From a virus (taxonomy: Duplodnaviria; Heunggongvirae; Uroviricota; Caudoviricetes), in IMG/VR virus record IMGVR_UViG_2667527592_000004, positions 1 to 15,373 of that record: a DNA stretch of 15,373 nucleotides, one strand, 5' to 3'. Positions 6,001 to 12,000 of this stretch are shown here, piece by piece. Position numbers: made by a program. The first letter of the stretch is position 1, and each line of letters starts with the position of its first letter.

Positions 6001-9000
6001 CCGTCAATTGCCCCTGAAATTTATCGTATTGCTCCAGGTTTTCGGGCTCTCAGTATCTGCGTAAAAGCTGCGCCAGTGCTTAATCCCGACATTGGAGAAA
6101 CGGCGCTGCGCGAAGCCTGTGAAGCCGTTCTGGTAGGTGAACCTGAATGGGCGGAATCTCATTTGGCTGCATGGGCAGAAGTGTTTCAAAAGTTTGGAGC
6201 TAAACCTAAACGAACCCCTTGCTCAGCTGATGCTTTGCGTAAGCGAGTATTACGTGATGGAACGATGCCAACGCTAGATCCTATCGTTGATCTTTATAAT
6301 GCCGTTAGTCTCCGTTACGCCATACCTGTTGGTGGAGAGAATATCTCTGCCTATCAGGGAGCACCACGTCTGGCTGTGGCAAAAGGAACGGAACCTTTTG
6401 ATACCGTCAAAGAAGGTGAAATGACTGTTGAATACCCCTTACAAGGCGAGATTATCTGGTGTGATGATATCGGCGTGACCTGCCGTCGCTGGAACTGGCG
6501 ACAGGGGATCAGAACTCGCTTAGGGGTGGAGGCTCAGCAAATGTGGTTTATTCTGGAAAGTCTGCCACAGATGCCGTTGGGGAGACTTCACGAAGCCGGT
6601 AAGATGCTGACTAACGGCCTTGAAAAAATGATGCCAGGTTTGTGGTTTGACGTTGTTCTCATTGAAGAACAACGGCAGTAATACCACTCAGGAGACACTA
6701 TTAATACTGAGTTTGGGAAGAAATGTATATGTCTTTATTCTTAACAAGTTTTATCTTTAAAAAAAAGAGTATGACGAAGAGTTTTACCAGCTTGATGCGT
6801 TAATAGAAAAACATACTCAGTCCATTGACGGTTATATCGGGATGGAAACTTATACAGATGCTGCCAGTGATAAAATTATTAATACGTATTACTGGAAAAA
6901 TCGTGAAGCAATGGATTTGATGATAAATAATTTACAACACCGACAGGCAAAAGAAAAAAGTCATAAATGGCTGTCCGGGTATCAGACGATTATTGCTGAA
7001 ATTAAGGGGTGCCATAATGTAAATATGCAACATCCACTTGCTTCATATTTCATACCATGGAATGAATGAAGTGAGAAAGTTCAGAGGCCTACTGATGCGA
7101 ATAAAAATAGTTTGCGGGAAAAGGCGAGTTAAGTAGAATTGCTGCGGGTGCTTGAGGCTATCTGCCTCGGGCATGAACACCAAAGGCAGATAGAGAAAAG
7201 CCCCAGTTAACATTACGCGTCCTGCAAGACGCTTAACATTAATCTGAGGCTCAATCCATGCTGAACACATGTAGGGTAGCCTCTTACGTGCCGAAAGGCA
7301 AGGAGAAGCAGGCTATGAAGCAGCAAAAGGCGATGTTAATCGCCCTGATCGTCATCTGTTTAACCGTCATAGTGACGGCACTGGTAACGAGGAAAGACCT
7401 CTGCGAGGTACGAATCCGAACCGGCCAGACGGAGGTTGCTGTCTTCGTAGACTACGAATCTGAGAAGTAAGAGTGACCAGGCGGGAGGGTAATCTCCCGC
7501 CACCTCTGATGTGTCAGGCATCCTCAACGCACCCGCACTTAACCCGCTTCGGCGGGTTTTTCTAGCATCTATCTGGTTGACAAAGTTGATGTTAAATGGA
7601 AATATGGTTGACACCAAAACAACAAGGATATTACGGTCATGCAGAATTTATCTCAACAGTTGTTAGAAGCATATGACAAGGAGTGCCGCAAAGAGCTTTC
7701 GATCGCGTTAGCACAGGCTTATCTTCATTCGCATATGAAGGCAAAAGAGTTTGGTTCTTTTTGGGCTCAAGCACAGTCATATTTGCGCTGGTTTTATGCC
7801 GATGCATTGCTTGAGAATGCGGCTAAGCGTGTGGGGCTGGATTTTGAAGTCGGTAGCAATGCTGCTAAAAATTGTAAACACATTGCGATTCACTCGAACA
7901 ACTGGAAAATGACGGCACATCATTTATCGGGTAATGCGCCACTTCCTAAGCAGGCATTGTATAGAGCTGTTTACGCTAATCAAAATTATGAATTGAATTT
8001 TGGGGATGAAAATGCCGACTCCCTGGATGGGAGAGCGTCTGGTGGACATGTTTATATGTTACATGATGGCAGTAATCAGCACTTGTCCAAACTGAATTTA
8101 ACTGTTCCTTCTTCGGATAATTACGGGATTCTTTATACTGAGTCTTTACCAATTATGACGATGGTAGAAGTTGAAGCAGAAAATGTGGATTCTGAGATTG
8201 AAGATAAAATCAAGATTCTTACCGAACAAATAATTAAATCACAGCAATCATGAGCATGAATATCGCACAAACACCATTTACTGATAAATCGTTTAATCCT
8301 CGTCGCCTTGAGGAGGCAAGAGAGGCAAAAGGGTTGACGATGGCTGAACTTGCCAGAGTGCTCAATATTTCAAGACAAGCTATTTCGTCATTTGAGAAGG
8401 GGTTGAAGTCTCCCTCTGCTGATACACTTTCTGCAATAGCCAAGGTGTTAGGATTTCCAGAACGATTTTTCTTAGCCTCCAGTGCTTCTCCATCTCTGGA
8501 GGGGGCGATTCATTTTAGAAGTCGTTCAACTGCGACCAAAAAGGCTCGAGTTACAGGGAAAACACGTGGGCGTTGGGCGGCATTAATATTGGATGAATGT
8601 CTAAAATATGCTCAATTACCAGATGTGGTTCTGCCTGAATTCGATATTATTGATTTTGAGGTTCTGTCTCTATCTGATATTGAGGATATGTCCACCCAAT
8701 TAAGGCGTTTTTGGGGGTTAGGTGATGGTCCAATACTCAATTTAACTAGACTTGTTGAAAATAAAGGAATCGTGGTTTCTCATTTACCTTCTGGTGAGAA
8801 AGTTGATGCCTTTTCGTTCTGGCATAATGGGCGGCCTTTAATTATGTTAGATAGCTCGAAGACGGCTGTTCGCATGCGATTTAGTCTTGCTCATGAACTT
8901 GGCCATTTAATTATGCATAGGGCAGTGGAGGATGACTACCTGAATGATAAAGAATTATTCGACCTGGTGGAGTTGCAGGCCGATTATTTTGCCTCCAGCT

Positions 9001-12000
9001 TTTTAATGCCAGCCACGACTTTCGGGCGTGAATTTTATAGTCCAAATTTATCAGCGTTAGAACGATTAAAACTACGTTGGATTACATCTATCGGTAGTAT
9101 TGCCATGAGGAGTCATAGCCTTAAGTTAATCAGCGATAATCAGAAAAGCTATATATTTAAGCAATTAGCGCCATTCCATCGTAGGGAGCCGTTAGATGAT
9201 GCAATCCCAAAAGAAGAGCCTGAGTTACTTAATAAGTTACTTTTACTTCTTGATAAGCATTCAATCATAAAGGTAACTGAGTTAACTGATATCTTTGCTC
9301 TTCCCTTAAATGAGTTATCTGCAATTACACGATTTAAAGAATCAGATATGATTCATTCTGACAATGTTATTTCATTTACCATAAAACAAAAATAATTCTC
9401 ATTCATACCCGCCTCGGCGGGTTTTTGTTTTACGTATTCTGGTTTACAATCCACAGGCCAGCCTGAACAACTGGCACCTGCTGCGCCAGCAGAGACAACC
9501 GATGGCGCACGATACCAAATTATACAATTCTGATGATTCTGCCGTCTTTGCCAGCAGGCACGGGCGGCGTTCCCGCACTTTCAAATCTGACTGGTTCCAG
9601 CATGACCCATGCACTGAAGAACAGGCCGAGTGGCTAATTCAGTGCTACCGCAGACACGGATACGAGATTAAGAAAGCCCTCAGCCTCGATTATCGTCACT
9701 GGATAATCTCCGTCAGGCTTCCTTACTCTGAACGCCCACCGCGTCCGTCCCGCACATTCCAGCAACGCATCTGGAGGTAACGTGCGGGTATTACTTCGAC
9801 CTGTTCTGGTACCGGAACTCGGGCTGGTGATCGTTAAGCCGGGCCGTGAGTCCATGTCGGTATTCCACAATACCCGGGTACTGGTGGAGCCGGAACCGAA
9901 AAGCATGCGCGGTCTGCCGTCCGGAGTCGTTCCTGCTGTTCGCCAGCCGCTGGCTGAGGATAAATCATTACTGCCATTTTTCAGCGATGAGCGGGTGATT
10001 CGTGCTGCTGGTGGTGCTGGTGCATTGTCTGACTGGCTGTTGCGCCATATTAAATCCTGCCAGTGGCCACACGGCGATTATCATCACAGCGAAACCGTCA
10101 TTCACCGTTATGGTACCGGCGCAATGGTGTTGTGCTGGCACTGCGACAACCAGCTGCGTGACCAGACATCCGAATCACTCGGGCAACTTGCTCATCAAAA
10201 CCTGTCAGCATGGATGATTGACGTCATCGGTCACGCAATAAGTGGTACGCAGGAGCGTGAATTATCTCTGGCTGAATTATCCTGGTGGGCGGTCCGCAAT
10301 CAGGTGGCGGACGCGCTACCGGAAGCGGTATTACGTCGTTCGCTGGGGTTGCGTGCGGAAAAAATCCGCTCAATGTACCGTGAAAGCGACATCGTACCGG
10401 GAGAGCAGACCGCCATCAGCATACTGAAGCAGCGCACAAAAAATCTTGCGCCGCTGCCTCACGCCCACCAGCAAAACCCGCCACAGGAAAAGACGGTGGT
10501 CAGCATTGCCGTTGATCCGGAGTCACCGGCTCAGTATCTCCAGCGCCAGAAACCACAACGGGAAGAGATGCCTGTATACACGCGCTGGGTAAAAACGCAG
10601 AAATGCATGACGTGCGGTAATCAGGCAGATGATTCGCATCACATCATTGGTCATGGACTGGGAGGGATGGGAACAAAGGCTGATGATTTGTTTGTTATTC
10701 CGCTGTGCCGTAAATGTCATAACGAACTGCACGCCGGGGTAAAAGATTTTGAAGAAAAACACGGCAGCCAGCTGTTGTTGCTGATTCGTTTTTTAATGCA
10801 CGCGAGAAATTTGGGTGTCCTGAAGTGGAAAGCATGAATGACTGAACGCATAGAATTTGTTTTGCCTTACCCGCCGACGGTGAATACCTACTGGCGACGT
10901 CATGGCAATACGTATTTCATCTCGGAGGCCGGAAAGCGTTATCGCCGTGATGTGGCGCTAATTGTTCGCCAGCAGCGGCTGAAATTAAACCTGTCCGGAA
11001 GGCTGGCGATAAAGATTATTGCAGAGCCACCGGATAAGCGCCGTCGTGACCTGGACAATATCCTGAAAGCACCACTGGATGCGCTGACGCATGCCGGACT
11101 TCTCATAGACGACGAGCAGTTTGATGAAATCAATATTGTGCGCGGTCAGCTCGTTCCTGGTGGGCGGCTGGGGATAAAAATCACAGAACTGGAGTGTGCA
11201 TGAATAGCCAGTATTTACAGTTTGTGCGTGAGCAGCTCATTATCGCCACCGCTGATTTGAGTGGGGCAACAAAAGGTCAGCTTGAAGCCTGGCAAGAGAA
11301 TGCCATGTTCGATACAGGGCGTTACAGGCGAAAAAAAATCCGGTACCGCGATGAAGTGACTGGAAAAATGATAACGCGGGATAATCCACCAATCCCAGGA
11401 AAGCAATCACTGGCGAAGGGGACATCAATTCCTCTGGTCAGTCCGGTTGAGTTTTCGACATCATCTTGGCGGCGGGCTGTTCTGTCTCTTGAAGAACATC
11501 ATAAAGCCTGGTTGTTGTGGTGTTACAGCGGGAGTATTTGTTGGGAATATCAGATCGCGATAACACAGTGGGCGTGGAATGAATTTAATACTCAATCCGG
11601 TATCAGAAAAATTGCTGGGAAAACGCAGGAACGCCTGAAAAAATTAATCTGGCTGGCGGCGCAGGCAGTAAAAGCAGAACTTTTTGGTGGGGAAGGTTAT
11701 GAATACCAGGAGCTGGCATTACTGGCGGGAGTGACAACTAAAAACTGGTCCAAAACATTTACTCGTCACTGGGTTGCAATGAAACACATTTTTCACCGAC
11801 TGGATAGTGAGGCTTTATTGTTTGTAATGAGAACACGTTCAAAACAAAAGGCGGCATTTTCAAAGCAAAGTGTTGCAAAAGTAGATTGAAAGGCATATAT
11901 TTCATGCAAATCTGATATTCTGCCGATTTTGTACGTGATGGCAAAAGCAAACAAAACCCGCCCACAAGCGGGTTTTTTTGTGCCACTTATCTCGGATAGA

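Follow-up and report, generated by a model that had tools for sequence, protein, structure and literature searches.

The stretch of DNA analyzed here (IMG/VR record IMGVR_UViG_2667527592_000004, positions 1 to 15,373; "the window" refers to this whole stretch of 15,373 nucleotides) corresponds to the early-right region of a prophage that is lambdoid and of the Shiga toxin 2 (Stx2) type. We have good confidence that window positions 7562-9426 constitute a Rosmer (RmrTA) anti-phage cassette of the toxin-antitoxin type, carried in this region as a moron. The system is of a known kind and its toxin family is catalogued. A preliminary description of this DNA had guessed at a Rosmer-type class, and the guess holds: PADLOC places both encoded proteins in Rosmer families, and their pairing is kept in diverged relatives. 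The same description listed three departures from Rosmer (a fusion of two domains, an extra domain and an uncharacterized partner protein); all three are normal for RmrA or belong to a catalogued RmrT, and the novelty that they implied is unsupported. What is new here is a conserved repeat pair with 31-bp spacing, a predicted endonuclease-like fold lacking the canonical residues, and a terminator-bounded insertion for which empty sites are available, findings that are useful but incremental.

The cassette consists of two genes, the only ones between its two terminators, and all of its features described below are on the plus strand. The first gene, rmrT (7639..8253), has an ATG start and encodes the predicted toxin/effector (204 amino acids, aa); the second, rmrA (8250..9395), also starts with ATG and encodes the predicted antitoxin and autoregulator (381 aa). 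Based on both the list of open reading frames (ORFs) and a reading of the sequence, the stop codon of rmrT and the start codon of rmrA overlap in the ATGA at 8250-8253, as had been described earlier, and translation of rmrA is coupled to that of rmrT through this overlap. A Shine-Dalgarno-like AAGGA, read from the sequence at 7624..7628, lies 10 nt 5' of the rmrT start codon. The G+C content of the cassette genes is about 40-43%, compared with 51-56% in the flanks. Two hairpins in direct repeat mark the borders: copy 1 (ACCCGCTTCGGCGGGTTTTT, 7542..7561) is the terminator of the upstream hok/sok locus and the left border, and copy 2 (ACCCGCCTCGGCGGGTTTTT, 9407..9426) terminates the operon and forms the right border. 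That these terminators are nearly identical had also been noticed before; they share 19 of 20 positions, at the coordinates just given. Their folding energies are -11.8 kcal/mol (z -4.0) for copy 1 and -12.1 kcal/mol for copy 2, each is followed by a run of T, and copy 2 alone passes a simple terminator scan.

The 381-aa protein has the domains of an RmrA. Pfam recognizes HTH_3 at residues 20-73 (E 2.4e-16) and Peptidase_M78 at residues 170-287 (E 9.7e-19; IrrE N-terminal-like), and with the AHELGHLIMH motif this verifies the earlier reading of an XRE-type helix-turn-helix (HTH) fused to a zinc peptidase. The HELGH within that motif occupies residues 215-219, giving a zinc site of H215, E216 and H219, with E241 as the candidate third ligand; the HEXXH and E241 are invariant across an alignment of diverged RmrA proteins that includes a verified one. 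Fourteen PADLOC RmrA models match the protein over nearly its full length, the best of them being PDLC03947 (E 5.5e-102), which aligns residues 11-380 with profile positions 7-381 of 383. With the verified RmrA of OLC-716, for which the RmrT and RmrA sequences were taken from the supplementary table of the Millman et al. preprint, the window protein shares 31% identity across 354 aligned columns (E 4e-41). Beyond the Pfam peptidase match the protein continues for about 95 residues. This region, previously considered an "extra" C-terminal domain, falls within the full-length RmrA models and can be aligned with the part of the verified RmrA that lies past the peptidase. The HTH-peptidase fusion with its C-terminal part is therefore the normal RmrA architecture, and the fusion of the two domains, once held up as a contrast to Rosmer, is equally present in the verified Rosmer RmrA. 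Against the NCBIfam model "spr1629 family repressor/antitoxin" the window RmrA scores 187 bits over residues 15-364, below the model cut-off of 335, and so it is not an spr1629 equivalog.

At the level of single domains, RmrA is also homologous to the CapH/CapP, DdrO/IrrE and ImmR/ImmA pairs, in which an XRE HTH likewise goes together with a zinc peptidase of the M78/COG2856 kind. The PADLOC capP model matches its peptidase domain (E 1.5e-21) and no more, ending at residue 290, the capH model matches its HTH (E 1.7e-10), and its sequence matches in the PDB include CapP (7t5t) and IrrE (3dte). These similarities would suit a switch of the ImmA/ImmR, IrrE/DdrO or CapP/CapH kind, in which the protease cleaves an HTH repressor upon DNA damage and so turns on phage or cargo genes in the control of lysogeny; CapP itself is activated by single-stranded DNA (10.1101/2022.04.27.489752). 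We regard such a switch as the most improbable of the explanations considered. The best full-length matches are to RmrA rather than CapP. In the known pairs the HTH repressor and the peptidase are separate proteins acting on an adjacent operon, whereas the window encodes them as a single polypeptide, with a linked effector gene and a terminator. CapP and IrrE carry a GAF-type sensor domain, while the capP match in the window RmrA stops before its last part. The terminator directly follows rmrA, with no regulated cargo behind it; the upstream 204-aa gene, which is always linked, has no place in such systems; and collinear phages lack the pair altogether. Moreover, a CI of the S24 peptidase type and a P22-type Cro are encoded by the prophage itself, so the two-gene module is not part of the lysogeny switch, and the possibility raised earlier, that it is a regulator pair of prophage lysogeny, does not apply. 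The idea of a sensing protease that releases an effector is no more than an analogy with ImmA, IrrE and CapP.

The first protein was reached through its family. The 204-aa sequence has no match in Pfam, NCBIfam (E up to 1) or the PDB sequence set, and to this extent the former statement that it has no recognizable motif stands; it fails in that PADLOC RmrT models do match, namely PDLC03933 (E 7.5e-10, 36.8 bits, residues 47-161), 03934, 03937 and 03940. Because the protein's own PADLOC match is weak and partial, its assignment to RmrT rests on a family-level link. A word-index search gave only 10 close relatives. With an HMMER profile, 1.84 billion representatives were searched exhaustively, and this gave 78 proteins, mostly of 195-230 aa. 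All 62 full-length members that were aligned match PDLC03933 (best E 1.8e-53), and 24 to 47 of the 62 also match PDLC03940, 03938, 03934 or 03937. No Pfam family is matched consistently among the 62, nor does the family profile consistently match any sequence in the PDB. By these matches, the window RmrT is a divergent branch of a catalogued RmrT family.

The operon is conserved in related loci. Where RmrT is 65-73% identical to that of the window (loci L006, L007, L008 and L009), the next gene encodes a 381-aa HTH and M78 protein and overlaps rmrT by 4 nt; where RmrT is 35-37% identical (L011 and L012), the next gene encodes an HTH and M78 protein of 384 or 376 aa. The pairing is thus kept in 6 of 6 independent loci spanning 35-73% RmrT identity, in 4 of them with the 4-nt overlap, and each diverged cassette closes with a terminator of its own sequence. 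In L006, L008 and L009 this type of cassette was seen in at least three further slots of mobile elements. The slots lie between cI/cro and an N-like antiterminator (lambdoid), between an Ead/Ea22-like gene and DUF1367/RusA (nin; DUF, domain of unknown function), and past a Toprim/DUF927 primase (P4-like satellites). The varied slots, together with the absence of the cassette from collinear phages, show that it moves as a unit.

The region upstream of rmrT is also conserved. The repeat TGGTTGACA, which had been noticed earlier as a direct repeat ahead of the module, occurs at 7574..7582 and again at 7605..7613. Repeat 1 contains the consensus -35 hexamer TTGACA (7577-7582), 17 nt after which a putative extended -10 element, TGgAAATAT, was read from the sequence at 7597..7605. 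Transcription would be expected to start near 7612, and repeat 2, which begins 31 bp after repeat 1, covers this predicted start. The motif TGGTTKACA occurs four times in the window (0.28 expected), a number that none of 200 shuffles reached. The 31-bp spacing is kept in 7 of 7 related loci (L006-L009 and L011-L013), the upstream regions of which have otherwise diverged, and across these loci (27-73% RmrT identity) the repeat pair is conserved down to 27%. Loci L006-L009 have TGGTTGACA twice and L012 has TGGTTGACA with AGGTTTACA, while the repeats are degenerate in L011 (ACTTGACA and ACTTTACT) and L013 (AGTTTACA and AGTTGATA). Loci L006, L008 and L009 have a TGn with AAAnnT at a distance equal to that in the window, while TAAAAT is found in L012. 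The recognition helix of the RmrA HTH, ISRQAISSFEKG, does not vary among the loci in which TGGTTGACA is retained and is altered where the repeat is altered. The two repeats are probably half-sites of an RmrA operator, and we infer autoregulation by RmrA from the deep conservation of the pair. We rejected a second promoter with the second TTGACA as its -35; no conserved -10 follows this element, and the transcript would start at or past the ATG.

Transcription data are available for a near-identical copy of the cassette, that of Escherichia phage Tritos, a prophage of E. coli strain LF82. RNA sequencing of the LF82 lysogen, in which the two genes are co-transcribed, gave 30x the prophage background for LF82_281 (hypothetical protein) and 14x for LF82_280 (ImmA/IrrE peptidase) (PMC9928086 Table 1), and the authors of that study list LF82_281/LF82_280 of Tritos as morons. 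Transcription of this copy, which is 99.4% identical to the window cassette, is independent support for an autonomous cassette promoter. An exact TGGTTGACA was also found away from the cassette, at 2459-2467 in the cI/cro intergenic region, between the GTAAC-N4-GTTAC palindromes 2427-2440 and 2476-2489; a role for it in RmrA control of the immunity region was considered, but this copy may be just a -35 element.

What these parts would do can be proposed from work on other Rosmer systems. In published studies RmrA is the antitoxin, and in two systems silencing of the toxin also requires ClpP or ClpX (10.1101/2020.05.25.114553; PMC12795458). Millman et al. (2022) could not obtain an rmrA deletion, possibly because of toxicity, and found that their Rosmer system protects against phages (10.1101/2022.05.11.491447). 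Transposon sequencing (Tn-seq) identified rmrA as essential in three Pectobacteriaceae (PMC13566846), RipB neutralizes RipA (PMC12795458), and Vmi470 neutralizes Vmi480 (PMC4671572). By analogy, RmrT of the window would be toxic, RmrA would neutralize it and the pair would protect against phages. The putative sigma-70 promoter would then give rise to a bicistronic mRNA ending at hairpin 9407-9426; rmrT would supply an effector of 23 kDa, soluble and built around an endonuclease-like alpha/beta core, and rmrA would be made through coupled translation. As in other Rosmer systems, RmrA could keep RmrT from doing harm, through direct binding or through the action of its zinc peptidase, possibly aided by ClpXP. 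Its XRE HTH probably binds both TGGTTGACA repeats, which cover the -35 and the start of transcription, and in this way would autoregulate the operon. An infecting phage would upset the neutralization, so that RmrT halts the cell before the invader's cycle ends, a step proposed solely from membership in the family.

A plain addiction module, which stabilizes the prophage by post-segregational killing and has no role in defense, would share the architecture of a toxin-antitoxin pair, and the cassette lies directly downstream of hok/sok, a locus that does the same job. Also in favor of such a module, Rosmer antitoxin genes are essential in Tn-seq (PMC13566846), and the published description of vmi480/vmi470 is of a toxin-antitoxin pair and nothing more (PMC4671572). 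We nevertheless consider addiction alone unlikely: two Rosmer systems with different toxins defend against phages (10.1101/2022.05.11.491447; PMC10440598), and the cassette appears in different slots of mobile elements, as defense morons do. Addiction is also compatible with defense, and the two are not mutually exclusive.

The predicted structure bears on how RmrT might act. A first prediction, based on 9 close homologs alone, reached a predicted local distance difference test (pLDDT) score of 40 and was discarded; the 62-sequence alignment was used instead and gave an AlphaFold2 model with a pLDDT of 85.8 and a predicted template modeling score (pTM) of 0.81. The N-terminal half of this model has a long helix (residues 14-64), three strands (68-73, 80-86 and 89-95) and a helix (107-119), and the C-terminal half has three further strands (136-145, 148-157 and 164-169), an acidic linker and a final helix (185-203). 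The predicted core may be a restriction-endonuclease-like alpha/beta fold, the fold of which NaeI, SwaI, HincII, Hjc and RecU are examples. A Foldseek search of the model against the PDB and BFVD returned nothing significant. Eleven residues are at least 90% conserved in the family (Y28, N74, N78, T92, A106, R109, N116, F121, H142, P157 and E181), with H81 and R/K104 just below that level and A76 also listed as conserved. PD-(D/E)xK nucleases carry the residues D...(D/E)xK, whereas the window RmrT has conserved Asn, His, Thr and Arg in their place, and it further differs from this group in that no sequence profile links the RmrT family to any PDB chain or Pfam family. The predicted fold thus suggests an activity directed at nucleic acid, while the missing carboxylates indicate that the chemistry, should there be any, is not that of a canonical PD-(D/E)xK nuclease. 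A nucleic acid is our best guess for the target of RmrT. The protein is soluble, acidic (isoelectric point 5.7) and of 23 kDa; its maximum Kyte-Doolittle value over 19 residues is 0.7, and no hydrophobic stretch is long enough for a membrane helix.

These properties set the window RmrT apart from the Rosmer toxins with a described action. RmrTA of Gordonia phage Kita, which defends against BASEL phages (Ernits et al. 2023; PMC10440598), is likewise a phage-encoded Rosmer with an ImmA-type antitoxin and a toxin without detectable family. Kita RmrT, however, has a predicted membrane-localized C-terminal region and depolarizes the membrane, whereas the window RmrT has no hydrophobic segment and an endonuclease-like predicted fold. 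RipAB (Spr1630/Spr1629) of Streptococcus pneumoniae, placed in the Rosmer family by its authors, has the same antitoxin architecture (PMC12795458); RipA, the toxin, acts on the sliding clamp DnaN, and ClpX is required to restrain it (PMC12795458); our comparison of RipA with the window RmrT was made through NCBIfam models only. A tentative extension, which we think rather doubtful, is that RmrT is a new type of effector, with a restriction-endonuclease fold, a non-canonical Asn/His/Arg/Glu site and a mechanism unlike that of Kita RmrT or RipA, and that its expression is set by RmrA on two repeats three helical turns apart, which would be the first defined Rosmer operator.

Among the closest points of reference is OLC-716 RosmerTA (Millman et al. 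2022), which is also a two-gene operon of E. coli with an RmrA composed of HTH, M78 peptidase and C-terminal region. Its toxin is different: 239 aa and PDLC03935, compared with 204 aa and PDLC03933 in the window, with unrelated sequences. OLC-716 RosmerTA probably belongs to the same family as the toxin-antitoxin pair of the E101 prophage, which makes clpP essential (Rousset et al.); the E101 suppressor T46S fits T46 of OLC-716 RmrT, where the window protein has Q46. We infer that OLC-716 RmrT is the relative with which the E101 toxin should be grouped, and probably Vmi480 too, which is 33% identical to the E101 toxin. The idea that the window RmrT family is that of the E101 toxin and Vmi480 was set aside, since T46 is absent and the RefSeq accessions of the E101 pair differ from those of the window pair (WP_001180546.1 and WP_000062344.1). 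Cluster look-ups of the window RmrT family, in which a link to Vmi480 was sought, gave no Vibrio names.

Several observations weigh against a Rosmer assignment, or against what it would imply for function. The matches of the window RmrT itself to the PADLOC RmrT models are weak and partial, and since those models were built from genes adjacent to rmrA, "RmrT" is a guilt-by-association label rather than a functional one. The window protein is unrelated to the verified OLC-716 RmrT in direct comparison (BLASTP E 2.3; hhalign probability 0.2%), and the latter matches other PADLOC models (PDLC03935 and PDLC03932); because RmrT families are known to be diverse, this dissimilarity limits the transfer of a phenotype rather than membership. 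The conserved residues of the family do not include D...(D/E)xK, and strands 80-86 and 89-95 are devoid of conserved acidic positions. A strict consensus scan misses the -10 element, which is weak. We found no publications testing this cassette or its RmrT family. Finally, in PD-lambda-2 the Xre-peptidase fusion alone is toxic when overexpressed and is rescued by the upstream gene (PMC9519451).

This last observation would allow the roles to be reversed, with the HTH-peptidase protein as the toxic effector and the 204-aa protein restraining or directing it, as for PD-lambda-2B and PD-lambda-2A; the window RmrA does match PD-Lambda-2_B weakly in PADLOC (E 0.002). Such a reversal seems very unlikely. 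That match is marginal beside those to the RmrA models (~1e-102). In Rosmer systems it is rmrA that is essential and that could not be deleted, possibly owing to toxicity, and RipB and Vmi470 neutralize their partners. PD-lambda-2 (Vassallo et al. 2022) has three genes, for a HigB-like toxin, an Xre-peptidase fusion and a P4-antitoxin-like protein, whereas the window module has two, with no third gene and none that is HigB-like; neither Pfam nor PADLOC gives a HigB match for the 204-aa protein.

The limits of the cassette are evident from phages that lack it. Located between hok/sok and ydfU-rusA-Q in the window, it is absent from phages vB_EcoS-640R1 and Evi, which align to window positions 7103-7560 and then directly to 9407-9900. 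The two halves of these alignments overlap by 19 nt, corresponding to one terminator hairpin, of which these phages have a sole copy. The insertion between hok and the nin-like genes proposed in the preliminary description is thereby borne out by an empty site. In PPompW/Qin-type phages a different gene, rem, occupies the slot. Based on the empty-site phages and on rem, the cassette extends from one terminator copy to the next, 1865 bp from start to start. The sequence TCTGGTT(G/T)ACAA is present at both junctions, about 10 nt 3' of the hairpin, so that 7542-7585 and 9407-9451 form a quasi-repeat of ~45 nt, and the right-hand copy (9407-9451) is found in cassette-free phages too. Accordingly, TGGTTTACA at 9440..9448 (plus strand) belongs to the right flank rather than the cassette, and it also occurs behind the single terminator of the empty-site phages. 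The quasi-repeat makes gain or loss of the cassette by recombination plausible, although the direction cannot be read from it. It may be a recombination substrate, or a relic of an earlier cassette promoter.

The Tritos copy has the same junctions as that of the window (99.4% DNA identity). Among 5426 complete E. coli genomes, 41 carry the cassette, and both exact proteins occur on at least 1000 contigs.

The gene order of the window places the cassette among typical prophage functions. From the left end it runs DicF, CI (HTH_3 and Peptidase_S24), P22-type Cro, a YdaT-like gene, a replication organizer, DUF977, a pair encoding an HTH-cupin and a B3/4-domain protein, hok/sok and the two-gene module; these are followed by a 92-aa ORF, YdfU (DUF968), RusA, Q, three transfer RNA (tRNA) genes, stx2-like A and B, and a holin. 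The hok/sok type I toxin-antitoxin locus directly upstream of the cassette is complete, with an Rfam sok match at 7146-7320 (113.5 bits) and a mok/hok ORF at 7258-7470, and two toxin systems, hok/sok and RmrTA, thus adjoin in this prophage. In LF82 the hokD copy is by far the most transcribed gene of Tritos, 3792-fold over background (PMC9928086). Between the replication genes and hok, an HTH_3 and Cupin_2 regulator (5340-5942, minus strand) diverges from the B3/4-domain protein (5986-6681, plus strand); this pair is a second accessory unit, and Tritos carries a different gene at that place.

The toxin region at the other side comprises stx2-like A (12439-13398, 319 aa) and B (13411-13674, 87 aa). 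It has ~90% DNA identity to stx2a/2c phages, the best phage record being phiSTEC1575-Stx2k (87.8%), and based on this low identity to known phages it is apparently an Stx2 subtype that has diverged. Among complete E. coli genomes in RefSeq, none contains as much as 80% of the window. The tRNA genes upstream of stx (12100-12345) are Thr(cgt), Arg(tcg) and Arg(tct); ileZ-argN-argO is annotated at the corresponding place in classical Stx2 phages. The small RNA STnc100 (Rfam, 109.8 bits) is encoded at 13756-13964, just 3' of stxB.

Current defense-system catalogues would call this locus Rosmer, and it does not represent a new kind of system. Its position is of consequence, as a defense cassette inside a Shiga-toxin-converting prophage could affect which phages superinfect the lysogen. 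For the RmrT family, the confident fold model, the short list of conserved residues and the conserved promoter/operator design offer a testable handle. The locus is also a clean natural case in which recombination at a terminator has added or removed a moron, and occupied as well as empty sites can be compared. As a compact E. coli cassette it is a convenient model for how Rosmer antitoxins sense infection and for the action of RmrT toxins.

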